From positions 49,588 to 113,587 of the forward strand of contig CAWEMP010000014.1 of the NCBI GenBank assembly GCA_963810205.1: a stretch of DNA of 64,000 bases, written 5' to 3'. The stretch is from an uncultured Acidobacteriota bacterium (GTDB lineage Bacteria > Acidobacteriota > Thermoanaerobaculia > UBA5066 > Gp7-AA6). How positions within the stretch are numbered: position 1 is the stretch's first letter; each line of letters begins with the position of its first letter. The notes beneath the pieces are model-generated. The model ran no database searches. It was not told the DNA's origin and was given only the letters and a program-made list of their open reading frames with translations. The position numbers and the translations under genes were made by a program. Of the stretch, positions 4,418-64,000 are shown piece by piece.

Positions 4418-5563
4418 ATGGAAGTCCCGGCCTTCACCCTCGGCGTCGAGGAAGAGTTCCAGATCCTGGATCCCGAGACGCGGGAGCTGCGCTCCCACGT
4501 CCAGGAGATCCTCGACGAGGGCAAGCTCGTCCTCAAGGAGAGGGTGAAGCCCGAGATGCACCAGTCGGTCGTCGAGATCGGCACGGGCATCTGCAAGAAC
4601 ATCGCCGAGGTCCGGCAGGACGTCGGCGAGATGCGAACGGAGATCATCCGCCTCGCCAAGAAGAACGGCATGCGGGTGGCTTCGGCCGGAACGCACCCCT
4701 TCTCCAACTGGGCCGACCAGAAGATCTTTCCCGACCCCCGCTATGACCAGGTCGTCGAGGAGATGCAGCAGCTCGCGCGGGCGAACCTCATCTTCGGCCT
4801 CCACGTCCACGTCGGCATCAAGGACCGCTCGCTCGCGTTCCAGATCATGAACGAGGCGTTGTACTTCCTGCCGCACCTGCTGGCCCTGTCGACCAACTCC
4901 CCGTTCTGGCTCGGCCGCAACACGGGGCTGAAGAGCTTCCGCACGAAGGTCTTCGACCGCTTCCCGCGCACCAGCATGCCCGAGTACTTCGAGACGCCGG
5001 CCGAGTTCGACGAGTTCGTCCGGATCCTGGTGAAGACCAATTCGATCGACAATGGCAAGAAGATCTGGTGGGACGTCCGCCCGCACCCGTTCTTCGAGAC
5101 GATCGAGTTCCGCGTCTGCGACGTGCCCATGCGGCTCGATGAGACCGTCACGCTCGCGGCGCTCTTTCAGGCTATTTGCGTCAAGCTGTACAAGCTGCGC
5201 CTGCAGAACCTGGGCTTCCGGCGCTACCGGCGGGCCCTCATCCTCGAGAACAAGTGGCGCGCCAGCCGCTACGGCATCGCCGGAAAGCTGATCGACTTCG
5301 GCAAGGAAGTCGAGGTCCCCTTCCCCGACCTCATCGCCGAAATGCTGGAGTTCCTGGACGACGTCGTCGACGAACTCGGCTCTCGCCGAGAGGTCTTCGA
5401 CGGAGTAAACTGGATTCTCAAGAATGGATCGGGAGCCGACCGGCAGCTCAGGGTGTACGAGGCCACCGGCGGCGACCTCAAGAAAGTCGTCGATTACATC
5501 TGCGAAGAGACGAACTACGGCCTACCCGTCGAGGCCCCGGCCGAGCGGGCGGCGACCCGCTAG
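4418..5563 (+). CDS. ybdK: Carboxylate-amine ligase (YbdK / glutamate--cysteine ligase 2 family)
   Basis: ATG 4418; FTLGVEEEFQ, AGTHPF, GLHVHVG, STNSPFW, WWDVRP, TIEFRVCD, ENKWRASRYG. Confidence 0.9.
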   Translation: MEVPAFTLGVEEEFQILDPETRELRSHVQEILDEGKLVLKERVKPEMHQSVVEIGTGICKNIAEVRQDVGEMRTEIIRLAKKNGMRVASAGTHPFSNWADQKIFPDPRYDQVVEEMQQLARANLIFGLHVHVGIKDRSLAFQIMNEALYFLPHLLALSTNSPFWLGRNTGLKSFRTKVFDRFPRTSMPEYFETPAEFDEFVRILVKTNSIDNGKKIWWDVRPHPFFETIEFRVCDVPMRLDETVTLAALFQAICVKLYKLRLQNLGFRRYRRALILENKWRASRYGIAGKLIDFGKEVEVPFPDLIAEMLEFLDDVVDELGSRREVFDGVNWILKNGSGADRQLRVYEATGGDLKKVVDYICEETNYGLPVEAPAERAATR

Positions 5564-8001: not shown

Positions 8002-8716
8002 CTACGGCACGTAGCTGCGGATCTGCGTCTTCCACCACGGCCAGTCGTGGCCGTACGGGGCCTTCCAGACACTGCCGCGGTTGCGGATGCCTTTCGCGTC
8101 GAGGATCCCGAGCATGTTCGTCGTGCCGGACAGGATGTTGTCCGTCTCGCCCGTGACGATCGCGATGTCCATCGAAGAGAGCCGGTTCACCCAGTCGCCG
8201 TCCATGTTGGGGACGTTGGCCGTCGGGCAGTGGAAGTAGCAGAGCTCGTCCCAGTAGCCGTCGAGGAAGTTGTGGATGTCGTACTTGCCGGAGAACGCGA
8301 TGACCTTGTCCACGAGGTCCGGATGGCGAAAGCCGAAGTTGGCCGCGTGATACGCGCCAAACGAGCAGCCGAGCGTCCCGACCCGTCCATCGCCCCGCGC
8401 CTTGCTGCGGACGAACGGCACGATCTCGTTGGCGATGTACGCGTCGTACTGGTCGTGCCTCCGGATGCGCTCGGCCGGATGCTTCGTCTTCGCGTAGAAG
8501 CTCTCCGCATCGACACTGTCCACGCAGGCGATCTGGAGCTTGCCGCCCTCGACGAGATCTCCGACCGCGCGCCACCAGGCCGAAGTCCTCGTTTTGGTAA
8601 AAGCGCCCGACGGACGTCGGGAACCAGATCATGGGCCGGCCCGCGTGGCCGAACCACAGGAGCTCCATCCGGCGGCCCAGCGTGGGCGAGTCCCAGGCGA
8701 TGTATTCGCGGTCCAT
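8002..8716 (-). CDS. Esterase family alpha/beta hydrolase; apparent frameshift near 8570
   Basis: GGAGG then ATG 8716, MDREYIAWDSPTLGRRMELLWFGHAG..FPTS. It joins ORF 8002..8523, which has GCSFGAYHA (nucleophile elbow) and GHDWPWW. Confidence 0.85.
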
Positions 8717-11362: not shown

Positions 11363-11630
11363 ACGGAGCCGGGGACCGTGATGGGGACGTCGGCTACAGC
11401 CGCCGGAGCAGGTGCGTGGCAGCGGTGAACATCGGCGGACATCTTCTCGTCGGTGTGATCCTGTACGAGGTGCAGGCGCGTCAGAGGCCGATCAAACGAG
11501 CCACGGCAGCAGACACGATGTCGGCGATCCTCAAGGAAGAGCCGCCGGAGCTTTCGGAGTCGGGGCGCACTTCGCCCGCGCTCAACAACATCGTCAGGCA
11601 CTGCCTCGAGAAGGACCGGGAGAACCGTTC
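11363..11630 (+). pseudogene. Decayed fragment of a Ser/Thr kinase C-lobe
   Basis: Across several frameshifts it reads TEPGTVMGT / GY / PEQVRG / DIFS / GVILYE...ADTMSAILKEEPPELSE...[13 protein letters not shown], paralogous to the kinase at 58783. Confidence 0.8.
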
Positions 11631-11639
11631 CTTCGTCCT

Positions 11640-12527
11640 TTGATCCTCAAAACGCCGGCGGCGCTTTCTGCTGGTCAGGCGTTCGTGTCCGACAACGCGA
11701 TCGGCATCAGTGTCACCGGCACCATTCCGGGCGGGTTCTTGGTTGTCGTGGACGACCGAAATGCTCCGTTCGTCACCGGCCAACTGCTGTCCTACGGGGA
11801 CGCCGGAACTCCCGGTAATGTTTCAAACCCCGTGCTCGTCGGCTTCGGCGGGTGGTTGGACTTCAAGTTTCTCTTCTCCGGTAGGAACCTCGCCGGCGAG
11901 GACCGCATCTACGCTGTGGACCAAAACGGCCAACTGCTGTCCTACGGGGACGCCGGAACTCTCGGTAATGTTTCCAACCCCGTGGTCGTCGGCTTCGGCG
12001 GGTGGTTGGACTTCAAGTTTCTCTTCTCCGGCAGGAACCTCGCCGGTGAGAACCGCATCTACGCTGTGGACCAAAACGGCCAACTGCTGTCCTACGGGGA
12101 CGCCGGAACTCCCGGCAATGTTTCCAACCCCATGGTCGTCGGCTTCGGCGGGTGGTTGGACTTCAAGTTTCTCTTCTCCGGTGGGAACCTCGCCGGTGAG
12201 AACCGCATCTACGCTGTAGACCAAAACGGCCAACTGCTGTCCTACGGGGACGCCGGAACTCCCGGCAATGTTTCAGACCCCATGGTCGTCGGCTTCGGCG
12301 GGTGGCTGGACTTCAAGTTTCTCTTCTCCGGCAGGAACCTCGCCGGTGAGAACCGCATCTACGCTGTGGACCAAAACGGCCAACTGCTGTCCTACGGGGA
12401 CGCCGGAACTCCCGGTAATGTTTCGAACCCCGTGGTCGTCGGCTTCGGCGGGTGGCTGGGCTTCAAGTTTCTCTTCTCCGGTAGGAACCTCGCCGGTGAG
12501 AACCGCATCTACGCTGTGGTTGCCTGA
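11640..12527 (+). CDS. Tachylectin-like five-bladed beta-propeller lectin domain, probably 5'-truncated
   Basis: Five 50-aa repeats, GQLLSYGDAGTPGNVSNPVVVGFGGWLDFKFLFSGRNLAGENRIYAVDQN. The G.GGW..FKFLF...IYAV pattern resembles tachylectin-2 blades. TTG 11640 has no convincing RBS. Confidence 0.75.
   Translation: MILKTPAALSAGQAFVSDNAIGISVTGTIPGGFLVVVDDRNAPFVTGQLLSYGDAGTPGNVSNPVLVGFGGWLDFKFLFSGRNLAGEDRIYAVDQNGQLLSYGDAGTLGNVSNPVVVGFGGWLDFKFLFSGRNLAGENRIYAVDQNGQLLSYGDAGTPGNVSNPMVVGFGGWLDFKFLFSGGNLAGENRIYAVDQNGQLLSYGDAGTPGNVSDPMVVGFGGWLDFKFLFSGRNLAGENRIYAVDQNGQLLSYGDAGTPGNVSNPVVVGFGGWLGFKFLFSGRNLAGENRIYAVVA
11778..12519 (+). repeat. Five near-identical 150-bp coding tandem repeats
   Basis: Units start at 11778, 11928, 12078, 12228 and 12378 and differ by only a few substitutions. 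Confidence 0.97.
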
Positions 12528-12570: not shown

Positions 12571-13023
12571 AGGCCTCAAGGCCTTTTGGTGGGGGGCACT
12601 GCCGCAGCCGCCGCGGCAAGCAGCTGCTGGAGTTCGAGCCGACGTTGCTCTTCTCGTGGCGAGCCCGGCTACCCCTCGGCCAGGTGTAGCCCTTTCGAAT
12701 GAGGCTGAGCAACGTCGCTTGTCGGGACATGCCGAGCCCTGCTGCGAGAGCTCGGGTGAGGAATGCGCGAGTAGCGCGACGATAGCATTTGCGGAGTATG
12801 ACTTACCGGCACCCGTCATGTTGGCCTGGCCAGGTCCGGCCGGGACCGCTTCGAGCCTTCTCAGAATTGTTCTGAATTCTTTCTAGCCTTTCCAGGTCTG
12901 TCTATCGATTTATCAGAAGGAATGGCCGTCTTCTCGGCGTGAGTCCTTCCTCGCTTGCGCCCGAATCACGGCGGGAGTAGCTCGGCAGCTGCCACCTGGG
13001 CTCGGACATCGCGAGGTGAGACG

Positions 13024-15420
13024 ATGCGAATCAAATCTCTGGCCGTTGTCACCATGGCGGTCTTGTCCCTCCGGGCTGGCGCGGGCGAGGGTCCGCCTGC
13101 CGCGCCGGAGAAGCGGCCGGTCGCGGAGCCGTCGGATATCGCCTTCCGCCGGGCGAAGGCTTTTCACGACATTTATGCGGGCGCGGGGGAATCGCGAGAT
13201 TTGGCCGCGGCCACACGAGCCTACAGCGAGTCCCGGAGAGGGCCCGAGGGTCGTGCGCGGATCGGGCGGCCGCTGCCGATCGACTTTCCGAGCCGGCCTC
13301 TCGATGAGCGGCTCAAGGTCTTGACCGAACGCCGGCCCACGCGGACCTTTCCGGGTTCGACCTTCCGCATGATGCGGCCGGCCGCGCATCCGATTGTGGG
13401 TACGAGTTGGCACAACCTCGGCCCGACCAACCTTGCCGGACGCGTCTCGGCTCTCGCGGTCGATCCGACGAACTCCTCGGTGATTTATCGAGGCACGGCG
13501 GGAGGCGGGCTCTGGAAATCGCAAGACAAAGGCATCAACTGGGTTCCCTTGACCGACAGCCTCGGCAACCTCTCGGTCGGCGCGGTCGCCGTCGCCCCCT
13601 CCAAGCCTCAGACCATCTATGTAGGCACCGGCGAAGGCGCCCTGGGCATCGACGGCATCGACGGCATCGGGTTCATCAAGTCCGCCGACGGAGGAGTGAC
13701 GTGGACGGTGCCCGACTCCGTTCTGGCACCCAAATTCTTCGCGTTGAGCGTGCACCCCACGAAGCCCAAGGAGCTGCTGGCGGCGACCTCGAAGGGAATC
13801 CACAAGTCGACCGACGGCGGCGACACCTGGACGCCGAAGTTTCCGCAGTACGCCGCGACTGAGCTCGTGCGCGTGCCAGGATCGCCGTCGACGATCCTGG
13901 CGAGCATGTGGGACATCCGGACGGCGACCTCCACTTGGAACGGGTATCTCTATCGCTCGACGGACGACGGAGAGACCTGGTCGAAGATCGGCGGAGCCGG
14001 GATTCCCCCTTTCGACGACGACACCGGCCGGCTCTCCCTCGCCGTCGCGGGGTCGAGCCCCTCCACGTTCTACGCCCTCGCGGCGTCCGCCTCAGGCGAC
14101 ATCAAGGGATGCGCGGTGGATCACGTAGACCAGGTCGGGTTCTACCGATCGACGGACGGTGGCACCACGTGGACCTTCCGCTCCAATCCGGTCACCGGGG
14201 GCTGCGACGATTCGGGCTTCGATTCGATCCTGGCGGGTCAAGGCTGGTACGCGAACAGCCTGCGCGTCTCGAGAACGAGTCCGACCACCGTTTTCGCGGG
14301 CGGCCTCGACCTCTGGAAGTCCACGGACGGGGCGGCGACTTGGACCAAGAAGTCCCGCTGGGACCTCAGTCCGTCGAGCAGCACCTACGTCCACGCGGAT
14401 ATCCATGCCCTCGTATGGGCCGGACCGCGCCTGCTCATCGGAGACGACGGTGGCATGAGCCGTACGCTGACCAGTGCGGCGAGCTTCGTCGAGATGAACG
14501 AGGGCGTCGTGACGCGTCAGTACTACTCCGTCGCCGTGTCGCCGACGAATCGCGACCTCGTGATGGGCGGCGCGCAGGATAACGGTACGAACATCCGCAA
14601 CGACACCACGACCACCTACCGAGAAGTGATCGGCGGCGATGGGTTCGGGGTCGCCGTGAATTCGTCGAACCCACAGATTCTGTACGGCACGGTGTACAAC
14701 TCACGGGTCTTTCGCTCCCAGGACGGCGGCACCAACTTCGACGAGATCACTCCCAACTTTGGCCAGAGCGAGAATCTTCCCTTCATCAGCCCTCTCACGA
14801 TGGATCCAAACAATCCCTCCGTGCTCTACACAGCGTCGAATTTTCTCTGGAAGACCACGAACGGCGGGTCGACGTGGCAGAAGACCTCCACGACGGATCT
14901 CGGCGACGGGAGCGACCGAGGTTACGTCACGAAGATCGCCGTCGCCAGGTCGAGCTCGAGCCACGTCCTGACGGCCACCGGCTCTGGAACGATCAGCAAG
15001 TCCGTGGATGGCGGCGTGACGTGGGCGAAGCTCGCGGGCCTGCCGGCGCGCTATGCGACGCACGTCGAGTTCGACCCAGCCAATGCGAGCACGTTCTACG
15101 TTTCCTTCACGACCACCGAGATCAGCGGCCGCGTTTTCAAGACGACCGACGACGGCGGATCGTTCGTCGCGATCGACAACGGGCTTCCGCGCTTTCCGGT
15201 TCACGTGGTCCGAGTGGACCCGGGTGATCCGCAGACTCTGTACGCGGGGACGGACGTCGGGCTCTATCGCTCCGCCGACGGCGGGTCGAGCTGGGCGAGG
15301 TTCGGGACTGATCTGCCTGCGGTCAGCATCTGGGACATCGCGATCCTTCCGGACGGGTCGATGATGCGAATCGCGACGCACGGAAGAGGGTTTTTCGAGC
15401 TCGACATTCCGCATCCGTAA
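13024..15420 (+). CDS. Secreted BNR/Asp-box repeat (VPS10 / sialidase-like) beta-propeller protein
   Basis: GAGGTG RBS, ATG 13024, signal peptide; many S.DGG.TW Asp-boxes, W..LGP...GRV, GTGE, HADIH, GGAQDNG, C-terminal ATHGRG. Confidence 0.88.
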   Translation: MRIKSLAVVTMAVLSLRAGAGEGPPAAPEKRPVAEPSDIAFRRAKAFHDIYAGAGESRDLAAATRAYSESRRGPEGRARIGRPLPIDFPSRPLDERLKVLTERRPTRTFPGSTFRMMRPAAHPIVGTSWHNLGPTNLAGRVSALAVDPTNSSVIYRGTAGGGLWKSQDKGINWVPLTDSLGNLSVGAVAVAPSKPQTIYVGTGEGALGIDGIDGIGFIKSADGGVTWTVPDSVLAPKFFALSVHPTKPKELLAATSKGIHKSTDGGDTWTPKFPQYAATELVRVPGSPSTILASMWDIRTATSTWNGYLYRSTDDGETWSKIGGAGIPPFDDDTGRLSLAVAGSSPSTFYALAASASGDIKGCAVDHVDQVGFYRSTDGGTTWTFRSNPVTGGCDDSGFDSILAGQGWYANSLRVSRTSPTTVFAGGLDLWKSTDGAATWTKKSRWDLSPSSSTYVHADIHALVWAGPRLLIGDDGGMSRTLTSAASFVEMNEGVVTRQYYSVAVSPTNRDLVMGGAQDNGTNIRNDTTTTYREVIGGDGFGVAVNSSNPQILYGTVYNSRVFRSQDGGTNFDEITPNFGQSENLPFISPLTMDPNNPSVLYTASNFLWKTTNGGSTWQKTSTTDLGDGSDRGYVTKIAVARSSSSHVLTATGSGTISKSVDGGVTWAKLAGLPARYATHVEFDPANASTFYVSFTTTEISGRVFKTTDDGGSFVAIDNGLPRFPVHVVRVDPGDPQTLYAGTDVGLYRSADGGSSWARFGTDLPAVSIWDIAILPDGSMMRIATHGRGFFELDIPHP

Positions 15421-15453
15421 GGCGCCGGAAACGGCCGTGCGTTCCGCGAGAGA

Positions 15454-15924
15454 TCACATCGGCAGGGGCCAGCACTCGAGAATCGTCCAGGTCGTCGCCG
15501 ACGGTGTCGGCCGCGGCCGCGACTCGCTCGAGGGACGGGTCCCCCCGCGGGGGCAAGGGTTGTCACGGACGACCGCCTTCCAGGTGTTCGACTCGGCGTC
15601 CCGGCGCAGAGTCAGCGTCCACGAACGCTCGGCGGCATCCCGATAGAGAACGGAGAACTCCGAGAGGTCCTTTTCGCGAACGAGCGGTGCGGGAGGAAGC
15701 GTCAGCTGGAGTCCATCGAGCTCGGGGCGGCCCGCTTCCCGCCAGGCCGTGGAATCGGTCAGCTCCGCGAGACGCTTCGGATCGCGAGACGCGAGGGCGG
15801 CGTCAACGAGCTTCAGGAACGTCTCGCGCGATTCGGGGTCTCGAGACGGATCCGGCGACCCGGCAGACGTCGTGAGCCGGGCAGCCTCGAGGAGGATCAG
15901 GGAGAAGACCAAGATCAGCTGCAT
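15454..15924 (-). CDS. Hypothetical exported protein
   Basis: 156 aa with a hydrophobic N-terminus and plausible codon usage; no recognisable domain. Confidence 0.55.
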   Translation of the reverse strand: MQLILVFSLILLEAARLTTSAGSPDPSRDPESRETFLKLVDAALASRDPKRLAELTDSTAWREAGRPELDGLQLTLPPAPLVREKDLSEFSVLYRDAAERSWTLTLRRDAESNTWKAVVRDNPCPRGGTRPSSESRPRPTPSATTWTILECWPLPM

Positions 15925-16066
15925 CCGTCAGGAGAGAACGCGCCATTCATCGGCTGGAATTCCGGCATCGGAAGGCCACGATTGCATTCGGCCGGACTCT
16001 CGCTATGCCTGAGCCAGAAGATCGAGGGCCGCCCAGAGCCGACCTGGTTCGCAATGACGCTCGCAC

Positions 16067-17131
16067 TCATCTCGCCGTAGCCGGGACGCCCGCTCCGCAG
16101 AGATAGACGGGAAACTCCCGGACGCCGTCGAGGCCGATGAGTTCCTCGATCGCGGAATCCTGGAGCGTGTCGCCGACGAAGGAGCCCAGTCCGCGGGACG
16201 TCGCGAGAAGGCAGAAGGTCTGCGCGAGATGGCCGGCCTCCAGCCAAAGGACGCGGTAAGCGGATTCGATCTGATACTTCCAGAGCGTGCGTTCGAAGAC
16301 GGCGGTCATGACGCAGAGGAAGGCGGCCTGGCCGACCCAGCTCTGACCCGAGGCCGCCCGGACGGCGGCGTTTCGCATCGGTCCCGCCCTGAGCCGCCGC
16401 AGCTCGTCTCCCTCGACCTCGTAGTGATAGAGGCCAGGCGCAAGCCCGCGAACGTTCGACACGAGGGCATAGCACTCGATCGGATGGAGCGCTCCGGCCG
16501 AAGGGCTCGTCTTGGTCGTGAGCTTGCCGAGGTATTCGGTGTCGAGCTCGCCGCTCTTGCCCCAGGTCCCCCGCAGGAGAGCGGCGAAGTCCTCGAGGAG
16601 GACGGGCTGCCGGGCAAACTTCCGCGTCGTGCGGCGCGCGCCCAGAATGTCCTCGAAGTGGAACGCGGCGGCCGAACGCGGCCGCCCCTTCGGCAGCGCC
16701 ACGCGGGGCGCCGCGGGATAGCGCTTGAAACGAGGGGGCCGGCGCCGTGTCGCGACGCGCCCCCGCATGTATCGGTCGAGCTCGGCCGGGCGGACCAGGT
16801 AGCGCGGGTCGCGGCAGGCAACGTGGTACTGCGCCGAAGCGAGATTCTGCTTCCAGGTCCGGAGCCGCGACAGCCGCCGCCGCCCCTCTTTTTCCGGGAG
16901 CAACAGGCCGATCGACGCGAGACGGCGGATGCTCCGGAGAATCGAGGTGCGCTGGTATTCGGGAAGCAGGTCGGCCGCCCCGGCGGGGGTGCGGGGCTTG
17001 CCGAACAGATCCAGGAGCGCGACGATCTCCGGCGAAGAAAAAATCTCGCGCTGCCCGGCGAGATCCTTGACGAACAGCCGCCCCTCGTCCCAGCCGACGA
17101 GAATGTCCGGGCTGCGGAGGAGCCGGCTCAA
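16067..17131 (-). CDS. SagB/ThcOx-type FMN-dependent dehydrogenase (nitroreductase fold) with an N-terminal RRE-like extension
   Basis: RRTTRKF, KTSPSAGALHPIECY, GLYHY, KY...AYR...LEAGHLAQTFCL, GLDG. The first ~80 aa look like three beta strands plus helices ending LASIGLL (wHTH/RRE-like). Confidence 0.88.
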   Translation of the reverse strand: MSRLLRSPDILVGWDEGRLFVKDLAGQREIFSSPEIVALLDLFGKPRTPAGAADLLPEYQRTSILRSIRRLASIGLLLPEKEGRRRLSRLRTWKQNLASAQYHVACRDPRYLVRPAELDRYMRGRVATRRRPPRFKRYPAAPRVALPKGRPRSAAAFHFEDILGARRTTRKFARQPVLLEDFAALLRGTWGKSGELDTEYLGKLTTKTSPSAGALHPIECYALVSNVRGLAPGLYHYEVEGDELRRLRAGPMRNAAVRAASGQSWVGQAAFLCVMTAVFERTLWKYQIESAYRVLWLEAGHLAQTFCLLATSRGLGSFVGDTLQDSAIEELIGLDGVREFPVYLCGAGVPATAR

Positions 17132-17143
17132 GTCGAGGCGGGG

Positions 17144-17272
17144 CTACTTACGCTTCGAGCTGAGCGGATCGCGCAGGGGCTTCCCGCCCCTGGGGCCGTC
17201 AACCGCGCACGAGTCCTTCTTCGGGGCATGAACGCGGCCACCGACCGTCAGCTTGAGCTTCATCTTCTTCAT
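17144..17272 (-). CDS. 42-aa small ORF, candidate RiPP precursor peptide (absent from the ORF track)
   Basis: GAGGAGG RBS, then ATG 17272: MKKMKLKLTVGGRVHAPKKDSCAVDGPRGGKPLRDPLSSKRK, TAG at 17146-17144, 12 nt before the SagB-like TTG start. Confidence 0.72.
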   Translation of the reverse strand: MKKMKLKLTVGGRVHAPKKDSCAVDGPRGGKPLRDPLSSKRK

Positions 17273-17298
17273 GGAACCTCCTCGATACCGTTCGGAAA

Positions 17299-19914
<2,616 letters not shown>

Positions 19915-20399
19915 GGGCCGGCGGGACTCGACCGATCCGGTTGTCATGGAAACTGCGAGACCTTATCGCACCGCGGTTCCGGAGCTGTCAGACCGAGCCC
20001 CCGGCTTCCGGGGAGAGCCGTCAGCCGCTACAGCAAGCGACCCCCAAGGAGTTCGCGCAAAGCTAACTCCTCCCGTGGCGACGATCGATAGATACGTTCG
20101 CATCAATCCTGGCCCAGCTTTCGTCTTCAGCGACCCGGACAAGAAACGGTACCGTCCGCGACGCTCCTCTCTCGCGCCAGGGGCGTAGGTCCCGTCGTGC
20201 CGGCTACGTTCATGAGCGTGAGCGAAGCGCGGGCTCGCGGCTTCGGGACTCCCGCATTCAGTTCTTGCGGATGCTCGGCCCCCCAGGCGCTGAGGGTCTC
20301 GAGTTTTGATAAGCTCGCCCGCCGCGCGACCAGGGCCGCTTCCTTGACGCGGAAGTCTCTCGGCGTGGCTCGATGGACGCGTCGGTCCGGGAGGTTGCA

Positions 20400-21338
20400 A
20401 TGTTCGGACGGCGACATCCACTGGCAATGCTGGTCGCGGCGAGCCTGACCTTCGCCGGAACGCTGGCCGCCCAGGAGGGAGCCGGCGCCGCCGTCGCCGA
20501 GCCTCGATCCGAGGCTCAAGGCGCCGCCTTCCGGTGGACCGACCCCGACGGCAAGCCGCTGCCGTTCCATTCCGACGAAGAGCTGCTCGTGTTCCTGGCC
20601 GCCGCCGACGTGAAGTCGGAAAAGCGCGTCACCGGCGGCGTGACGTTCCCCACCAAGATCCTGCTCGAGAAGGACGGCATCCGCTCCGACGCCATCTTCC
20701 GCGACATCAACGAGGACAGGTCGACACCGACATTCGGCGGCGGCCGGGACGACCTGTATTTCCGCGACAACTACATATACGAGCCCGCGGCCTATCAGCT
20801 GAGCCTTCTCCTGGGCTTCGACAACGTACCGCCCGCGACCCTGCGCAAGATGGACGGCAAGAGCGGGAGCGTGCAGATCTGGGTCGAGAACGCCATGACC
20901 CCGAAATCGATGGCGAAGCAGAACCTCCAGGCGCCCGACCCGGTGCAGTGGAACAAGCAACTGCAGATGATCAACGTCTTCGACGCTCTCATCTACAACA
21001 CCGATCGCAACAGCGGCAACCTTCTCATCACGCCCGACTGGAAGATCTGGATGATCGATCACACCCGGGCTTTCCGCCGTCATCCCCGCCTCCAGAAGCC
21101 CGACTCGCTCAATCAGTGCGAGCGCGGCCTCTACCAGCGGCTCAAGACGCTGGATGAAGCGGTCGTCCGCGAGCGCCTGAAGCCCTATCTCTCGCCCTAC
21201 GAACTGGACGCTCTCCTGGAGCGGCGCAAGCTGATCGTCGAGCGTCTGGACAAGCTCATTGCCGAGCGCGGCGAAGACAAGGTGCTGTACAACTACACTG
21301 CGGCCGTCGCTCCGGCGCAACCCGGGAACCCGCAGTAG
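20400..21338 (+). CDS. Exported atypical kinase-fold protein (PI4K-II / HipA / Fam20-like motifs)
   Basis: GGGAGG RBS, ATG 20400, Sec-type signal ending LAA; GGVT loop, AIFR, YEPAAYQLS, VPP, GSVQIW, NTDRNSGNLL, IDHTRAF. Confidence 0.72.
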   Translation: MFGRRHPLAMLVAASLTFAGTLAAQEGAGAAVAEPRSEAQGAAFRWTDPDGKPLPFHSDEELLVFLAAADVKSEKRVTGGVTFPTKILLEKDGIRSDAIFRDINEDRSTPTFGGGRDDLYFRDNYIYEPAAYQLSLLLGFDNVPPATLRKMDGKSGSVQIWVENAMTPKSMAKQNLQAPDPVQWNKQLQMINVFDALIYNTDRNSGNLLITPDWKIWMIDHTRAFRRHPRLQKPDSLNQCERGLYQRLKTLDEAVVRERLKPYLSPYELDALLERRKLIVERLDKLIAERGEDKVLYNYTAAVAPAQPGNPQ

Positions 21339-21362: not shown

Positions 21363-24146
21363 TCAGTCGACCGACGCCGCCAGCTGCCTCTTTGCGGCGC
21401 GCGCCGTCTCGCGCAGGAGCTCGTCCTCGGCATCGAGGCAGGCCTCGACCTGTTCAGCCAGCTCGCGCAGGCCGAGGGCGCCGACGGAGGAGATTCCGCA
21501 GGCCTTGAGCCACGGGTCGTCGCTTTCGACCAGAGCGACCACCAGCTCGCGGGCGGTCGGCTCCTCCGAGCCGGTGCGCCGCAGGATCGGAACGACGCGC
21601 TCGTCCAGAGGCGCGGACGGATCGAGCAGCGACACGAGGGTCTTGCGCAGGTCGCGCTCCAGAGAGAGATCGAGAAACTCGAGGGCGTGGTCGCGGCCCG
21701 TGGGATCGCTCGAGCGCAATCCGTAGTGGGCATTGCGAAAGTCGGTGTCCGGATAGAGGAGGCTCAGGAGCCGGAAGATGCGCTCGATCTCCTGGTCGTG
21801 GCTCGCCTCCAGCCGTCGCTGGACCTCGGTCGGCTGCGCGGCTCCGGGCAGGGAGTCCTTCCCGCGGCCGGCGACGGCCAGGATCTGGTTCGTGCGGCTG
21901 TGGAGCATCATCTCGAAGCCGAGGGCCGCGCGAAGGCGGAGCGGGTCGATCGCGGTGCTCGGGTGCTCCTTGCGGACGTCGTTGAGGGCGCAGATCGTGC
22001 GGAAGCGCATTTCGGGCTGGCTCTCGAGCAGGTTCTCTTCGAGGGCGCTCGCCGCAGCGTGGTTGCCGATGCGCGCCAGGACGGCGGGAATCTCGAGGCG
22101 GCTCGAAAGCGGAGCGTCCCCATCGGTCAGCTGGTCGCGCAGGAGGCCGAGGACCCGGTCGCCCATGGCGACGAGCGCGTCCGCGGCCTCGTCCCGCACT
22201 CGCGCGTCGCTCAACAACCCGATCAGCTTCCCGGCCACCCGCCGCTTGCGCAGCTTCCCGGCCGCGCGGGCCGCCGCCCGCACGACGTCCGGGTCGTCGT
22301 CGGAAAGGAGAGCCTCGAGCTGGTCGTCGAAGCCGTCGCCCAGAATTCCGACCAGGGCCGCGGCTTCGAGCCGCGCGCCTTTGCCCGCCTCCCCGCGCTG
22401 AGCGATCATCCGGTCCATCAGCATCCCCGCCTCCGGGACGCGCTCGCGGTCGCCCGAGCGCGCGAGAAACGTGACGATCCCGGAAGCCACCGACACGTCG
22501 TGAAAATCCTCGAGGTTCTTGATCCGCGTCAGCGGATCCGCGGGTGCATGGTGATCGAGAAAGAGGAGGGCCGCCGAGCGAACGTCTCCGTCCGGATCGC
22601 TCAGCATCTCCTCGACGCGCGGCAGGGCCCAGAGGTCGCCGGCCGCGTCGAGCAGCTCGAGGGCTCGCCGGCGCACCGCGGGCGACTCGTGACCGAGCAG
22701 GTCGCGCACGCCCGGCGGGGCCTGGGGACTCTGCGGGGCGCCGAGGATCTCCAGCGCGTAGAGGATCTGCTTCGGATCCGGGGAGCTCAACTGCGTCGCC
22801 AGGATGTCGGCGGTGGACCGGTCGAGCACCGGGGCCAGTTGCCGCTCGGCGTCGAAGCGCCGCTGACGGATGCTGTCGAGCAGCGTGCCCGCGTAGCGCC
22901 GGCGCGCCACGACGGCGGCCGCGATCCAGCCGCCGACGAAAACGAAGTTGACGAGCGAGACCTTCTGCGCCGACCAGTGGAGCCGGTCGGTGAAGATCGC
23001 GAGCGTGAAACCGGCCAGGCCGTCGCCGAGCCGCCAGATCACGGTGTCGATGGCGGATTTCGCCTGCAGTTTGATGTCCGGGGGTATCGGCAGATAGAGC
23101 AGCTCGACCGACGACTTGTCGAGCGAATAACGCACGACCGAGTCGCCGCCCTTGAGCAGGATCGCCGCCCCGAGCGTGCCGAGAAGCAGAACCGCCATCT
23201 CGCTGCCGAGGAGCCCCAGCGGCACGATGAGCAGGGCCGGCCCGAGGCCGAAGCGGCGCAGGAACCTGGACGTCAGCAGGAGCTGGAGCGCGAGGCAGGC
23301 GAGGCCCGCCCAGAAATTGAACTGCCCGAAGAATGCGGTCAGGGCGTTCTTGTCGGGGTAGGCGGCCTTGGCGATCGCCTTGAACTGCCAGCCGGCGAAG
23401 CAGGTCGCGATCGACGACAGCGTGATCAGGGAAGCGATCGAGATGAGGTACGGGGAGGAGAAGACGACGGCCATCCCCTCCCTCAGGCTCTTCGAGGGCG
23501 GCTCCGCGTGGGGCGTTTCGCCTGCCGGCAGGGACGCCCCCCTCTCGCGCCACAGGACGACGACGAGCGCGGCGCAGCCGACCAGGGCGACGGACATCGC
23601 GAGAAGGACGCTCTCGGTGCCGAGCCCCGGGGTCTTGGCGAGGGTCTCGGCGAGGAGACCCGAGAAAATCCAGCCGGTGATGCCTCCCGCGCCGACGAGG
23701 CCGAAGATGCGCTTGGCCTCGCGAGTCGTGAGCAGATAGTTGGCGAGCGTCCAGACCTGCGTCGGCGCCAGGACGCCGAGAATTCCGACCCAGATGTAGA
23801 ACACCGGGTACTGCCAGGTGAGGTCCGGCCGGAACTTCGCCAGGTACCAGAATCCGACCTGCAGGGCCGCGAAGAGAAGCAGGCAGCCGACGAGCAGGTT
23901 GCGAAGGACGACGCGGCGACCGATCGCCACGTAGGCGGCGATCACCACCCCCACCGACAGGGCGATCGCCATGTCGGCATAGGGGAGCTTCGAGGCCTTG
24001 AATACGCTCAGGAACAGCGCGTCGCGCGCGGTCTTGCCGAGCTGGTAGCAGGTGATGATCATGAAGAGATAGAGGAAGAGCATGGCGCCGCGTCGTCCGT
24101 CGCCACGCTGGAGGTTGAAGAGCCGTGCGAGCGGATTCGACCTCAT
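21363..24146 (-). CDS. Npt1/Npt2 (TLC/NTT) nucleotide transporter fused to HEAT repeats
   Basis: About 12 TM helices with KTARDALFLS, FYIWVG, WTLAN...REAKRIFG, RYSLDKSS.ELLYLP, KSAIDT...RLGD, followed by ~500 aa of HEAT-like repeats. Confidence 0.85.
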   Translation of the reverse strand: MRSNPLARLFNLQRGDGRRGAMLFLYLFMIITCYQLGKTARDALFLSVFKASKLPYADMAIALSVGVVIAAYVAIGRRVVLRNLLVGCLLLFAALQVGFWYLAKFRPDLTWQYPVFYIWVGILGVLAPTQVWTLANYLLTTREAKRIFGLVGAGGITGWIFSGLLAETLAKTPGLGTESVLLAMSVALVGCAALVVVLWRERGASLPAGETPHAEPPSKSLREGMAVVFSSPYLISIASLITLSSIATCFAGWQFKAIAKAAYPDKNALTAFFGQFNFWAGLACLALQLLLTSRFLRRFGLGPALLIVPLGLLGSEMAVLLLGTLGAAILLKGGDSVVRYSLDKSSVELLYLPIPPDIKLQAKSAIDTVIWRLGDGLAGFTLAIFTDRLHWSAQKVSLVNFVFVGGWIAAAVVARRRYAGTLLDSIRQRRFDAERQLAPVLDRSTADILATQLSSPDPKQILYALEILGAPQSPQAPPGVRDLLGHESPAVRRRALELLDAAGDLWALPRVEEMLSDPDGDVRSAALLFLDHHAPADPLTRIKNLEDFHDVSVASGIVTFLARSGDRERVPEAGMLMDRMIAQRGEAGKGARLEAAALVGILGDGFDDQLEALLSDDDPDVVRAAARAAGKLRKRRVAGKLIGLLSDARVRDEAADALVAMGDRVLGLLRDQLTDGDAPLSSRLEIPAVLARIGNHAAASALEENLLESQPEMRFRTICALNDVRKEHPSTAIDPLRLRAALGFEMMLHSRTNQILAVAGRGKDSLPGAAQPTEVQRRLEASHDQEIERIFRLLSLLYPDTDFRNAHYGLRSSDPTGRDHALEFLDLSLERDLRKTLVSLLDPSAPLDERVVPILRRTGSEEPTARELVVALVESDDPWLKACGISSVGALGLRELAEQVEACLDAEDELLRETARAAKRQLAASVD

Positions 24147-56011: not shown

Positions 56012-56077
56012 GAGGGCCTCCGAAGCCGCGCGCCAGCCTATCAGAGGGGTTCACGGCTAGAATCGGCGGCGCGCCCC

Positions 56078-58735
56078 ATGCCTCTCTCCGTCGGGACACG
56101 CCTCGGCCCCTACGAGATTCTCGCGCCGATCGGCGCGGGCGGGATGGGCGAGGTCTACAAAGCGCGCGACACGCGGCTCGATCGCACGGTCGCTGTCAAG
56201 GTCCTGCCCGAGCAACTCTCGGCCTCGCCGGAATCGCGGCAGCGCTTCGAGCGGGAAGCGAAGACCATCTCGCAGCTCTCCCACCCACACATCTGCGCGC
56301 TCCACGACGTCGGCCGCGAGGGCGACACCGAGTACCTCGTCATGGAGTACCTGGAGGGCGAGACGCTCTCGGAGCGGCTCGCCAAGGGACCGCTCGTGCT
56401 CGAGCAGACGCTGCGATACGGGAGCGAGATCGCCGACGCGCTGGAGAAGGCGCACCGGCAGGGCATCGTTCATCGGGACCTGAAGCCCGGCAACGTCATG
56501 ATCACGAAATCGGGCGTCAAGCTCCTCGACTTCGGACTCGCCAAGGCGATGGCGCCTCCGGCGGCGCCCTCCAGCCTGACGGCCCAGCCCACACAGCAGG
56601 GGCTGACTCAGGAAGGCACCATCCTCGGGACCTTCCAGTACATGGCGCCCGAGCAGCTCGAGGGCAGGGACGCCGACGCGCGCACCGACGTCTTCGCCCT
56701 GGGCGCCACGCTGTACGAGATGGCGACGGGCAGGAAGGCCTTCACGGGCTCCACACAGGCCTCGCTCATCTCGGCGATCCTGCGCGACGATCCCCAGCCG
56801 ATCTCCCAGGTTCTGCCCATGATTCCGCCCGCGCTCGATCGCGTCGTGAAGGCCTGCCTGGCCAAGGACCCCGAGGATCGCTGGCAGTCGGCCGGCGACG
56901 TCGGACGACAGCTCAAGTGGATCTCCGAGGGGTCCGCGGCCGGCGTCGTCGCGCCCGCCGCCGTCGTCTCACGGCGAAGGCTCCGCGAACGCGCCGCGTG
57001 GGCCGCGGCCGCGCTGCTCCTCCTCGCAACGCTCTTTCTCGCCAACGAGATGCGCAAGGCCCGCGGCGCGCGGCGGGAAACCGTGCACTCTTTCCTCCTT
57101 CCGCCGGAGCGGACGGCGTTCCGTCTGACCGGCGACGACGCCGCGCCGGTCACGGTCTCGCCCGACGGAGACCGCGTCGTCTACGGCGCCGGCGGCAAGC
57201 TCTGGGTCCAGGCGCTCCGGACGGGCACCGTGACGCCGCTCGCCGGCTCGGAAGGGGCGCGCTTCCCGTTCTGGTCGCCCGACGGGCGATCGATCGGCTT
57301 CTTCGCGGAAGGCAAGCTCCGCAGGATCGACGCGGCCGGAGGGCCCGTGTCGACGCTCTGCGACGCGCCCAACGCCCGGGGGGGAAGCTGGTCGACCTCG
57401 GGCGACATCGTCTTCACGCCGGACATCCGGACCGGCATCCTCCGCGTGTCCGCCTCGGGCGGCCCGCCCCAGGCGGCGACTCGCGTCGACCCGAAGCTGT
57501 ACACCACCCACCGCTGGCCGAGCTTTCTTCCGGATGGCCGACACTTCATCTACCAGGCCACCAACCACAACGAGCCGCGGTCCGAGCGATCCGGCGTCTA
57601 CGTCGGGTCGCTCGATGGCGGCGAGAGCCGGCGCCTGGTCTCGACCTTTGGCGGCGCGCAATACGGGTCCGGCTGGCTCCTGTACACGGCGGACACGAGC
57701 CTGATGGCCCTCCGTTTCGACGCCGCATCGAACACGGTCTCGGGAGAGCCGCTCCGGGTCTTCGACAACGTCCACTACGACGTCGGAGTCTGGCGCGGGA
57801 ACTTCAGCACGTCGCAGAACGGCATCATCGCCTACCAGGTCGCGCAGGCGGGAGTCGGAGGACAGCTGACGTGGCTCGACCTGTCGGGGCGCGTCCTCGG
57901 GAAAATCGGAGAGAAGAGCGAAGCGTACTCGCCGGAGCTCTCGCCCGACGGGCGCCGAGCCGCGGTCGTCCTGGGCGATCCGGCCAACGACGTCTGGATC
58001 TACGACCTCGAGCGCGGAATCCGCACCCGACTGACCAATGGAGCCGTGGCGACGACGGCTCCCCTGTGGTCCCCCGACGGCTCGGAGGTGCTCTACTCGT
58101 CGCAGGCTCAGGCCGGGAGTTTCGTGCTCAGCGCAGTCCGTTCCGACGGGTCCGCGACGCCGCGCGAGATCTACAGATCCACCGAACGGATCGAACCCAC
58201 CGACTGGTCGCGGGACGGCCGCTACGTCCTCGCGACTCGGGGCCAGATCGGCGCCAGCGACATCTGGGTCGTGCCGCTCGCGGACCCGGCCAAGGCCTCG
58301 CCGTTGGTCGCCTCGCCCGCCCCCCTGGACACCAGCGGCCACTTCTCGCCCGACGGCCGCTGGGTCATCTATCGATCGAACGAATCCGGAAGGACGGAGA
58401 TCTACGCGACGCCCTTTCCGGCGGGAGGCGCGCGCTTTCAGATCTCCGCCAACGGAGGCACACAGCCCCGCTGGAGCGCGGACGGGCGCACGGTCTATTT
58501 CGTCTCCCCGGAAAGCGACCTCGTGGCGGCCTCGATCCGGATCAACGGGTCCCGGCTCGAGGTCGAGGAGACGCGCACCCTGTTTCCGGCCAACTTCTAC
58601 GTCGGCCCCCGCGTCGGTCTGTCGGGCTACGACGTGCGCCGGGACGGCAAGGGCTTCCTCGCGTCGAGCGCGGGCGACGTCGGCGCGCCCCGCGTGGCGC
58701 TCGTCGAGAACTGGGACGCGGGGCTGCCGCGCTGA
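56078..58735 (+). CDS. Transmembrane Ser/Thr protein kinase with a TolB-like beta-propeller
   Basis: ATG 56078 MPLSVGTRLGPYEI; [29 protein letters not shown], a TM helix, (W/F)SPDG repeats. Confidence 0.93.
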   Translation: MPLSVGTRLGPYEILAPIGAGGMGEVYKARDTRLDRTVAVKVLPEQLSASPESRQRFEREAKTISQLSHPHICALHDVGREGDTEYLVMEYLEGETLSERLAKGPLVLEQTLRYGSEIADALEKAHRQGIVHRDLKPGNVMITKSGVKLLDFGLAKAMAPPAAPSSLTAQPTQQGLTQEGTILGTFQYMAPEQLEGRDADARTDVFALGATLYEMATGRKAFTGSTQASLISAILRDDPQPISQVLPMIPPALDRVVKACLAKDPEDRWQSAGDVGRQLKWISEGSAAGVVAPAAVVSRRRLRERAAWAAAALLLLATLFLANEMRKARGARRETVHSFLLPPERTAFRLTGDDAAPVTVSPDGDRVVYGAGGKLWVQALRTGTVTPLAGSEGARFPFWSPDGRSIGFFAEGKLRRIDAAGGPVSTLCDAPNARGGSWSTSGDIVFTPDIRTGILRVSASGGPPQAATRVDPKLYTTHRWPSFLPDGRHFIYQATNHNEPRSERSGVYVGSLDGGESRRLVSTFGGAQYGSGWLLYTADTSLMALRFDAASNTVSGEPLRVFDNVHYDVGVWRGNFSTSQNGIIAYQVAQAGVGGQLTWLDLSGRVLGKIGEKSEAYSPELSPDGRRAAVVLGDPANDVWIYDLERGIRTRLTNGAVATTAPLWSPDGSEVLYSSQAQAGSFVLSAVRSDGSATPREIYRSTERIEPTDWSRDGRYVLATRGQIGASDIWVVPLADPAKASPLVASPAPLDTSGHFSPDGRWVIYRSNESGRTEIYATPFPAGGARFQISANGGTQPRWSADGRTVYFVSPESDLVAASIRINGSRLEVEETRTLFPANFYVGPRVGLSGYDVRRDGKGFLASSAGDVGAPRVALVENWDAGLPR

Positions 58736-63005: not shown

Positions 63006-64000
63006 TTGAGCCTCGCCATCGGCACCCGCCTCGGCCCGTACGAGATCCTGTCGCCACTCGGCGCAGGCGGGATGGGCGAGGTGTACAAGGCGAAGGACAC
63101 GCGGCTCGACCGAACCGTGGCCGTCAAGGTGCTCAAGCTGGACGTCTCATCGACTCCGGAGGCACACCAGCGCTTCGATCGCGAGGCAAAGACGATCTCG
63201 CAGCTCTCCCATCCGCACATCTGCGCGCTGTACGACGTGGGCCGGGTTGGCGAGACCGAGTACCTGGTCATGGAGCTGCTCGAAGGGGAAACGCTAGCGG
63301 CGCGCCTCACAGGGGGCGCTCTGCCGCTCGATCAGACTCTGCGCTATGGCGTCGAGATTGCCGGAGCGCTCGATCACGCGCACCGTCACGGCATCGTCCA
63401 TCGAGACCTGAAGCCGGGAAACGTAATGCTGACAAAGTCGGGCATCAAGCTCTTGGACTTTGGGCTGGCGAAGCTGCAGGCGCTATCCGGGCCCGTGGAT
63501 TCCTCAGGCTCGCAGCTTGCCACAGCCGGGGCCCCGCTGACGACCGAGGGGACGCTCGTCGGGACCCTCCAGTACATGGCTCCGGAACAACTGGAGGGCG
63601 AGGAGGCCGACGCACGGAGCGATGTTTTCGCCTTCGGAGCGGTGCTCTACGAGATGGCGACTGGACGGAGGGCCTTTTCGGCAGCGAGTCGTGCATCGTT
63701 GATAACGGCGATCATGTCTTCCGATCCAGCGCCGATCTCCACGATCCGCCCGATGACCCCGCCCGCGCTCGACCGCGCAGTAAAGAAGTGTCTCGCCAGG
63801 GACCGGGACGACCGCTGGCAGTCCGCCGCCGACCTGGAGAGCGAGTTGAAATGGATCGGAGAGTCCACGGTGCCGAACGTCGCCCCGGCAGCCCTGGGGC
63901 GGCGCGGCATGCGGAATCGGCTGTCCTGGGCTACGGCGGGTTTCTTTTTTTTCTCCACGCTCGCCCTGACGGTCGCGATCGCCTCCCGGGGTCGTTCTTC
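63006..64000 (+). CDS. Ser/Thr protein kinase, running off the window end
   Basis: GGAGGG RBS, TTG 63006: [51 protein letters not shown], then the start of a TM helix. Confidence 0.9.
   Translation, partial: MSLAIGTRLGPYEILSPLGAGGMGEVYKAKDTRLDRTVAVKVLKLDVSSTPEAHQRFDREAKTISQLSHPHICALYDVGRVGETEYLVMELLEGETLAARLTGGALPLDQTLRYGVEIAGALDHAHRHGIVHRDLKPGNVMLTKSGIKLLDFGLAKLQALSGPVDSSGSQLATAGAPLTTEGTLVGTLQYMAPEQLEGEEADARSDVFAFGAVLYEMATGRRAFSAASRASLITAIMSSDPAPISTIRPMTPPALDRAVKKCLARDRDDRWQSAADLESELKWIGESTVPNVAPAALGRRGMRNRLSWATAGFFFFSTLALTVAIASRGRS

Follow-up and report, generated by a model that had tools for sequence, protein, structure and literature searches.

A receptor kinase, a small basic cysteine-bearing peptide and an RRE-fused SagB-type dehydrogenase form a candidate YcaO-free cassette in an uncultured Acidobacteriota bacterium

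The stretch of DNA analysed here (the window; 64,000 nucleotides from an uncultured Acidobacteriota bacterium, contig CAWEMP010000014.1, positions 49,588 to 113,587) most likely holds one copy of a three-gene cassette, consisting of a membrane receptor Ser/Thr kinase, a small basic peptide with a single cysteine, and a SagB-type flavin mononucleotide (FMN) dehydrogenase that is fused to a recognition element (RRE) of the kind found in the biosynthesis of peptides that are made by ribosomes and modified post-translationally (RiPPs). The unit of three genes recurs in relatives that lack YcaO, and the peptide is probably modified by chemistry not yet described. The genes are encoded on the minus strand in the order kinase, peptide, enzyme, with spacings of 26 nt and 12 nt, and the features of the locus are as follows.

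17299..19947, minus strand: Ser/Thr receptor kinase, 882 aa (Pfam Pkinase, TolB model, motifs in the translation)
17273..17298, minus strand: spacer of 26 nt from kinase stop to peptide start, with a GAGGAGG Shine-Dalgarno sequence 4 nt before the ATG (sequence)
17144..17272, minus strand: basic, Cys-bearing peptide of 42 aa, the presumed substrate (precursor) (open reading frame, orthologue conservation)
17132..17143, minus strand: gap of 12 nt from peptide stop to TTG, without a separate Shine-Dalgarno sequence (sequence)
16847..17131, minus strand: RRE-like (PqqD-type winged-helix) N-terminal domain of the enzyme, residues 1-95 (predicted fold)
16067..16846, minus strand: helical linker and SagB-type nitroreductase-fold FMN dehydrogenase domain of the enzyme, residues about 96-354 (Pfam/NCBIfam, motifs)

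The small open reading frame (ORF), its GAGGAGG ribosome-binding site and its stop codon 12 nt before a SagB-like enzyme gene had been reported in an initial annotation made from the letters of the stretch, and coordinates and sequence were recovered exactly as quoted there; CGAGGAGGTTCC, which contains GAGGAGG, stands 5′ of the peptide ATG. The close packing of the genes suggests that all three are co-transcribed. The enzyme gene (354 aa) starts with TTG, which is the sole start codon in the open frame of the orthologous locus L004, and because this TTG has no Shine-Dalgarno sequence of its own and lies 12 nt after the peptide stop, translation of the enzyme is probably coupled to that of the peptide ORF. 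A promoter and terminator scan of 15300-20500 returned no sites of either kind, a result that is uninformative. Family scans of the genes near the cassette found no exporter, protease, E1-like protein or YcaO, in agreement with the initial annotation, which had recognised no YcaO, E1-like partner or exporter locally. A 156-aa ORF (15454-15924) and the Sortilin/BNR-repeat protein next to it had no tblastn match in any of 53 database loci, and the downstream genes are therefore placed outside the cassette. Three enzyme paralogues, each in a cassette with a kinase upstream, were found in the source genome.

Since 91 ORFs of at least 30 aa occur within 10 kb of this GC-rich DNA, a 42-aa ORF by itself means little. 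Start, stop and ribosome-binding site were retained in three orthologous loci (L004-L006) with enzymes 86-94% identical to that of the window, one of them carrying a 9-nt in-frame deletion; the GAGGAGG Shine-Dalgarno sequence was the same in L004 and L006, and GGAGGGAG stood in its place in L005. The ratio of non-synonymous to synonymous polymorphism (pN/pS) was 0.51 in the peptide frame of 11 class-B sequences (the classes are described below) compared with 0.96-0.97 in the off frames, and 0.50 in the peptide frame of class A, to which the window peptide belongs, where only four sequences entered the comparison and the off frames (1.46 and 0.60) were less cleanly separated. Where the upstream DNA of related loci could be read, a small ORF finished at or just ahead of the enzyme start in 32 of 37. 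No convincing ORF was seen in the other five, which are L028, L031 and L035 together with L025 and L026, where propeller gene and enzyme directly adjoin. The initial annotation had proposed that peptide and RRE-SagB enzyme belong together and that a conserved motif might be found among ORFs upstream of homologous enzymes; this frequency of upstream ORFs, and the class motifs found in them, support a real conserved pair. Its description of the peptide as unannotated was not strictly correct, as public gene calls contain the exact 42-aa sequence as a 'hypothetical protein'.

The window peptide has an isoelectric point (pI) of 10.8 and 13 Lys plus Arg residues, and is laid out as an N-terminal K-L-K-L-T strand-like motif, a Pro/Gly/Asp-rich middle with the single Cys22, and a Lys/Arg tail. 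A pI of at least 9.9 was found for 33 of 35 listed peptides, and at least one Cys was present in all 27 peptides of the Thermoanaerobaculia-type clade. Class A, which comprises the peptides of the window, L004-L006, L010, L013 and the own-genome paralogue L003, has K-L-[RK]-L-K-L-T, then G-R, then one Cys; T9, R13 and C22 are invariant in these seven peptides, and three members have a longer helical N-terminal extension. Within the DSCAVDGP stretch, on which the initial annotation had suggested that the enzyme may carry out a different oxidative chemistry, Cys is the sole residue that is invariant among the nearest peptide relatives. Class B (11 loci) opens with M-P-A-K-K-M-K-[AV]-x-A-K, followed by a core rich in Pro, P-x-S-x-P-x-C, in which the Cys is invariant, and by a poly-Lys tail, and class C, the Gemmatimonadota type, has L-E-L-K-L-K and an aromatic C-terminus without Cys there. 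An alternating hydrophobic/basic strand-like motif is common to classes A, B and C, and may be the docking element for the RRE. Neither the window peptide nor 10 related peptides (E up to 10) and two longer forms matched anything in Pfam or NCBIfam.

When 35 enzymes were placed in a maximum-likelihood tree, the classes of peptide tracked the enzyme clades (support of 99/99 for class B, 98/95 for five of six class-A rows and 90/93 for class C), which indicates inheritance as a unit and not co-evolution as such, because related sequences share labels. Outside this tree were 19 of the 51 related loci: five with frames that are broken or extended, probably by assembly indels (L006, L029, L031, L040, L046), the N-terminally truncated L030, and L018, L035, L042, L043, L045 and L047-L054, most of which are partial matches. 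The conservation of the ORF bears on an alternative in which it is not a functional partner at all, but a translated leader or spacer by-product beside a stand-alone oxidoreductase acting on a small molecule or another protein. The low complexity and hypervariability of the peptides, the ORFs in other frames within the spacer of some loci and the five loci of 37 without a convincing ORF would fit such an arrangement. It is nevertheless considered very improbable in view of purifying selection in the peptide frame with in-frame indels, the Cys and Thr that are invariant within classes, the agreement of classes with enzyme clades, the predicted RRE fold of the enzyme, and a complex score that, although weak, exceeds that of the best control (0.44 against 0.02; see below).

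Two further loci illustrate the variety of arrangements. L025 (3998-9057) consists of two tandem cassettes; the first enzyme has a 65-aa Cys-bearing ORF after it (5199-5396) and none between propeller and enzyme, and upstream of the second lies a basic small protein of 110 aa that contains Cys (8214-8546), so that position and size of the peptide vary. The third cassette of the source genome (L002, C11:1207046-1210543) has a 44-aa Lys-rich ORF with a terminal Cys (2573-2707). Farther upstream in L002 lie a 112-aa ORF without Pfam match and then what appears, as read from the sequence, to be the C-terminus of a kinase with tetratricopeptide repeats (TPR), and a second kinase-propeller gene converges on the enzyme 3′ end.

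Residues 165-348 of the enzyme matched Pfam Nitroreductase (E 5.8e-22), with no other Pfam match found, and residues 179-345 matched TIGR03605, 'SagB family peptide dehydrogenase', at 121 bits (cut-off 78.4). The best full-length model was TIGR04511, 'putative peptide maturation dehydrogenase', which scored 194.5 bits against a cut-off of 240 and was aligned over model positions 77-370 of 380. The enzyme has the motifs RxTxR (166-170), SPSxG (209-213) and K285-Y286; among 46 homologues, R166, T168, R170, S209, P210, S211, G213 and Y286 do not vary, and conservation of K285 is at least 90%. The K285-Y286 pair fell on K201-Y202 of McbC and on the FWKY motif of ThcOx in a profile-to-PDB alignment. 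An AlphaFold2 model built from the 46 homologues had a mean predicted local distance difference test (pLDDT) score of 88.4, and the best PDB match of the whole enzyme by Foldseek was ThcOx (E 6e-20, 371 alignment columns, TMq 0.69). Judged by score and motifs, the predicted protein is a member of the SagB family. For McbC, a published study describes a Lys that activates the Tyr, which takes the azoline alpha proton while the beta hydride passes to FMN N5 (PMC6395948); the same Lys-Tyr motif is described in a cyclodipeptide-oxidase preprint.

The cassette is frequently met in soil metagenomes, with 474 homologues at E <=1e-10 among 8000 scored candidates. In three loci (L042, L053, L054) a C-terminal piece of the enzyme gene stands by itself (58-129 residues, 78-97% identical), in one case directly after a kinase fragment, and these pieces look like decayed or rearranged cassette remnants, or contig artefacts.

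The N-terminal domain of the enzyme lies outside the Pfam coverage. Residues 1-96 were predicted alone by AlphaFold2 with a pLDDT of 89.6, giving strands at 4-6, 10-15, 18-23 and 28-31 and helices at 34-44, 49-54 and 61-73. The top PDB matches of this domain in Foldseek were TigE, TbiB1 (with leader peptide), ThcOx, LynD, the PbtF RRE, CteB, MccB and PqqD, with E-values of 1e-3 to 1e-1, probabilities of 0.96-1.00 and TMq of 0.5-0.74. With modest E-values set beside these probabilities and TMq values, the claim of an RRE holds at the level of predicted fold, and the RRE-like N-terminus read by the initial annotation was borne out at that level, as the best matches are RRE-bearing proteins. Co-folding of peptide and enzyme, also suggested there, gave weak support. 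The complex prediction for full enzyme and peptide, both entered as alignments, scored 0.44 against 0.02 for the best control, with contact agreement between runs of at least 63%, partner pLDDT of at least 44 and no reported interface, but this score lies in a low range that it shares with both mismatched pairs that passed, and by the calibration of the tool a pass at 0.44 is more often wrong than right unless the pairing is already likely. Of 80 solved complexes 58 attained the mark for a pass, as did 2 of 110 mismatched pairs, and scores <=0.60 were those of 7 of the 80 solved complexes and of both passing mismatches. Part of the score may reflect likeness to known complexes, because leader-RRE complexes have already been solved.

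YcaO, searched as Pfam PF02624 at the scale of the own genome, the genus, the related loci and the phylum, had no match in the own genome (78.5% complete), the place where the initial annotation had proposed to look for it. The 25 genomes searched for the genus likewise had none; the enzyme is present in 11 of them, among which are G011 (98% complete, 2 contigs) and G029 (93%). Among 41 relatives, YcaO occurred in two genomes of another family only, both without the enzyme. None was found in five genomes with related Acidobacteriota loci, nor in five genomes with related loci from Pseudomonadota, Gemmatimonadota, Verrucomicrobiota, Luteitalea and another Acidobacteriota, so that the lack of YcaO which the initial annotation had noticed in the window extends to the own genome, to the genus genomes searched and to 10 further cassette-bearing genomes. 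In a draw of 301 Acidobacteriota genomes, 24 had a TIGR04511-like match (E <=1e-30), none of them above the cut-off of the model, 28 had YcaO, and five had both. In G055, G090 and G181 YcaO adjoins a SagB-like gene with a short frame and weak score, which is the classical arrangement, and in G066 and G251 YcaO and the SagB-like gene are unlinked. Ten of 12 genomes with strong long-form matches (E <=2.4e-46) had no YcaO, and in the other two it was unlinked. Within the limits of Pfam detection and genome completeness, we conclude that the long-form clade works without YcaO.

These distributions were weighed against an ordinary azole pathway, in which a cyclodehydratase, either from elsewhere or of a non-YcaO kind (conceivably through ATP activation by the kinase), makes a thiazoline at the Cys that the SagB-type enzyme then oxidises to a thiazole. 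That the enzyme passes TIGR03605, that the Lys-Tyr pair of azoline dehydrogenases is kept, that the peptide core has one invariant Cys and that the own genome is 78.5% complete are all compatible with such a pathway. It is considered improbable, since YcaO was found in 0 of 25 genus genomes and 0 of 10 further cassette-bearing genomes, and the SagB genes that adjoin YcaO (in G055, G090 and G181) are short, weaker-scoring forms distinct from the long form that occurs without YcaO in 10 of 12 genomes. In addition, we know of no protein kinase that catalyses cyclodehydration.

The 882-aa kinase matched Pfam Pkinase (E 3.6e-47; kinase domain at residues about 23-287) and in its translation the HRD, DFG and APE motifs are intact, residue 320 is followed by a hydrophobic stretch (one predicted membrane helix), and residues 677-753 match the TolB propeller model. 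On account of the intact motifs, the hydrophobic helix and the TolB-like propeller it is read as a membrane receptor-type kinase. When the related loci were searched by tblastn with the window kinase and propeller, kinase and/or propeller adjoined the pair in 43 of 51 loci from four phyla; the eight loci without a kinase were L018, L032, L036, L038, L042, L043, L049 and L053, several of which have little flank or an enzyme fragment only. In Thermoanaerobaculia-type loci the kinase-propeller gene is the immediate upstream neighbour on the same strand, and the kinase is upstream on the same strand in Luteitalea, a gammaproteobacterial metagenome-assembled genome and other Acidobacteriota, and downstream on the opposite strand in Gemmatimonadota. 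Two kinases that were scanned (L039, L047) have TPR instead of the propeller in their C-terminal part. Among the 144 kinase matches in the genome, the closest paralogue of the window kinase is the kinase of the second cassette (749 bits compared with 506 for the next), which argues that the cassette was duplicated as a whole. By this comparison of sequences the cassette has a conserved third member in the receptor kinase, which the initial annotation had not linked to the pair, and the terms 'stand-alone' and 'minimal two-gene', under which the pair had first been described, had to be given up.

A lanthipeptide-type (class III/IV) reading was tried and rejected: the kinase lacks lyase/cyclase domains, is of the membrane receptor type and has a TolB-like propeller C-terminus, and in searches with LanL (85.7 bits against 650) and LanKC (50.3 against 575) only its kinase domain matched. 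As a separate observation, the 144 matches to the cassette kinase amount to a very large expansion of Ser/Thr kinases, with tandem runs on contigs C11, C18 and C20, and three more kinase genes lie on the plus strand at the right end of the window (about 56066-57034, 58783-60117 and 63009-63908).

The constant presence of the kinase raises another possibility, which is that the locus is mainly a signalling module. The peptide would then chiefly be a substrate or modulator of the kinase, the flavoenzyme would set the redox or modification state of the peptide, or the winged helix would serve another partner, and an envelope signal would enter through the periplasmic propeller or TPR. The kinase adjoins the pair across phyla with differing sensor domains; genes for an exporter, a protease or immunity are absent from the cassette, and what lies downstream of it is not conserved; and the peptides are of a cytoplasmic type with a conserved Thr in basic contexts. 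The NCBIfam kinase/cyclase proteins TIGR03903 and TIGR04510, which we take to be partners of SagB-type systems, also speak for such a module. The best fold matches of the N-terminal domain, however, are RiPP RREs and not DNA-binding regulators, and the invariant catalytic and FMN-binding residues argue for a working, peptide-directed enzyme. A signalling module of this kind, which overlaps the reading preferred below instead of excluding it, is regarded as possible but doubtful.

We lean, at a little better than even confidence, towards a reading in which the enzyme modifies the adjacent peptide without YcaO and has the kinase as its functional partner. As the fold, the motif and the weak complex score suggest, the RRE of the enzyme would dock the K-L-K-L-T-type strand motif of the peptide, and the FMN domain, with its conserved catalytic residues, would carry out a two-electron dehydrogenation in the Pro-rich stretch around the conserved Cys, with the Lys285-Tyr286 pair as base, as in McbC. 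In the cassette genomes searched, YcaO was either absent or unlinked, and a YcaO-made azoline is therefore not expected as the substrate. The absence of YcaO from these searches and two precedents point to direct oxidation of an unmodified residue, by an alpha,beta-dehydrogenation like that of the nitroreductase domain of PflD; only about half of the confidence placed in the preferred reading attaches to this chemistry, which is accordingly tentative. Two outcomes are plausible, namely that the Cys itself is dehydrogenated, or that a neighbour is dehydrogenated and then captured by the Cys thiol. The kinase may regulate the pair, phosphorylate the peptide (which has a conserved Thr in basic contexts) or sense the product.

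Several findings weigh against this reading. The Gemmatimonadota-type clade has peptides without Cys (five of the 35 listed, namely three from Gemmatimonadota and those of L038 and L039), and the Cys is therefore not a universal target; in L025 and L026 the ORF between propeller and enzyme is missing. The peptides are atypical of RiPP precursors, being Lys-rich at both ends without a conserved acidic or hydrophobic leader, and the cassette has neither a protease nor an exporter. The Lys-Tyr pair, which the enzyme retains, is a hallmark of azoline oxidases and is as compatible with an unknown cyclodehydratase as with direct dehydrogenation. In addition to the incomplete own genome (78.5%), the ten related-locus genomes are of unreported completeness. 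With about 144 kinase matches in the genome some proximity to a kinase is expected by chance, although a fixed position and orientation are not. To these is added the calibration of the complex score given above.

A more specific proposal, which we rate as rather unlikely, is that the cassette represents a receptor-kinase-coupled, RiPP-like class of its own, in which an FMN dehydrogenase, guided by its RRE, would act directly on a residue that is not activated, either the single conserved Cys of a cationic, Pro-rich peptide or one beside it. The product could be a dehydro-Cys, a thioaldehyde, or a thioether formed when the Cys captures the new dehydroamino acid; the modified peptide could serve as the intracellular output of the kinase, as its substrate or, after release, as its ligand; and the unit would have been duplicated and diversified whole in soil Acidobacteriota. 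The cassette is small enough for co-expression of two or three genes, which would show YcaO-free, RRE-guided action of a SagB-type enzyme on a Cys peptide, and being widespread and easily tested it is of interest to RiPP enzymology. The fixed link to a receptor Ser/Thr kinase, seen across phyla, may tie the modification of peptides to signalling.

The surroundings of the cassette in the window include several other genes. On the plus strand, 11412-12527 encodes a repeat-rich, lectin-like protein of 371 aa with near-identical repeats of about 50 aa (…NRIYAVDQNGQLLSYGDAGT…; Pfam Tachylectin, E 4.2e-11), and 12955-15420 encodes the Sortilin/BNR-repeat protein (821 aa), which is convergent with the cassette and not conserved beside it elsewhere. 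Beyond the kinase, 20373-21338 on the plus strand encodes a 321-aa protein with an N-terminal hydrophobic stretch and weak, sub-threshold matches to PI3/PI4-kinase, HipA-like and Fam20C models, which may be a secreted atypical kinase-like protein, and 21363-24146 on the minus strand encodes a protein of 927 aa in which a TLC ATP/ADP-transporter-like membrane domain is fused to HEAT repeats.

The textbook partner of a SagB-type dehydrogenase is YcaO. The enzyme of the window resembles ThcOx/CyaGox (PDB 5LQ4, 8PZ5) and McbC (PDB 6GOS) in its nitroreductase-fold FMN domain and Lys-Tyr pair, and ThcOx also in its N-terminal RRE-type domain and whole-length Foldseek match. Unlike ThcOx and McbC, which act on azolines from a YcaO cyclodehydratase, it has no YcaO that could be found in its genome or in the cassette-bearing relatives searched, its model has one RRE-type domain followed by a helical linker, and its partner is a receptor kinase. 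It therefore fails the functional hallmark of the SagB family, a YcaO partner. The nearest concept is that of TIGR04511 (SagB_rel_DH_2), which presumably forms an uncharacterised trio with TIGR04509 (mod_pep_NH_fam) and TIGR04510 (mod_pep_cyc). That trio also joins a SagB-like enzyme and a small peptide to a signalling-type protein and not to YcaO; the partner here differs in being a Ser/Thr kinase with propeller or TPR. The TIGR04511 cut-off of 240 was not reached by the window enzyme (194.5 bits), by eight relatives (160-193) or in any of the 301 Acidobacteriota genomes; TIGR04509 had no match in the window peptide or 10 related peptides (E up to 10), nor in the genome (E up to 1); and the best TIGR04510 match in the genome, at 57 bits, stayed below the cut-off of 400. 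Measured by the curated threshold, the predicted enzyme is a sub-threshold relative of TIGR04511 and not a member.

A literature search found no paper on a kinase-linked, YcaO-free SagB cassette (supplements of preprints, such as the tiarin precursor and domain lists, lay outside the search), none pairing SagB with 'YcaO-independent', and none naming TIGR04511, TIGR04509, TIGR04510 or SagB_rel_DH_2. Two preprints from 2025 describe related enzymes. In the trifolitoxin-type 'tiarin' family, TfxB and TfxC are RRE-bearing SagB-type FMN dehydrogenases that are proposed to install the family-defining post-translational modification, a Gln-derived fluorophore, and YcaO-like proteins are frequent in tiarin operons and not present in all (bioRxiv 10.64898/2025.12.02.691738). 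The cassette resembles what that text describes in having an RRE-bearing SagB-type enzyme, a precursor gene immediately upstream with a strong Shine-Dalgarno sequence, and highly variable precursors. Compared by description, tiarin clusters have a TfxB-TfxC pair, a conserved Gln and often an aminoacyl-tRNA synthetase immunity gene, and here there is one enzyme with a kinase partner; membership in the tiarins was rejected, since each cassette has a single SagB-type gene and the window peptide lacks Gln.

The second preprint concerns the nitroreductase domain of PflD from Pseudomonas pfl/pos RiPP clusters, which is not associated with YcaO and converts Phe to Z-dehydroPhe (-2 Da); its authors describe nitroreductases not associated with YcaO as rare and functionally uncharacterised, and suggest that other YcaO-free nitroreductases make dehydroamino acids (bioRxiv 10.1101/2025.10.30.685615). 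With such nitroreductase-fold chemistry independent of YcaO already present in preprints (PflD, TfxB/TfxC), and with the enzyme being a sub-threshold relative of TIGR04511, the suggestion of the initial annotation that the locus defines a class was too strong. By description, PflD is a fusion with a multinuclear non-heme iron-dependent oxidase (MNIO) in a cluster with a HEXXH enzyme, a GNAT protein and transporters, and the enzyme of the window is an RRE fusion with a kinase as neighbour. Both are nitroreductase-fold and YcaO-free, and by analogy with PflD, direct peptide dehydrogenation would be the likeliest chemistry for the cassette enzyme.

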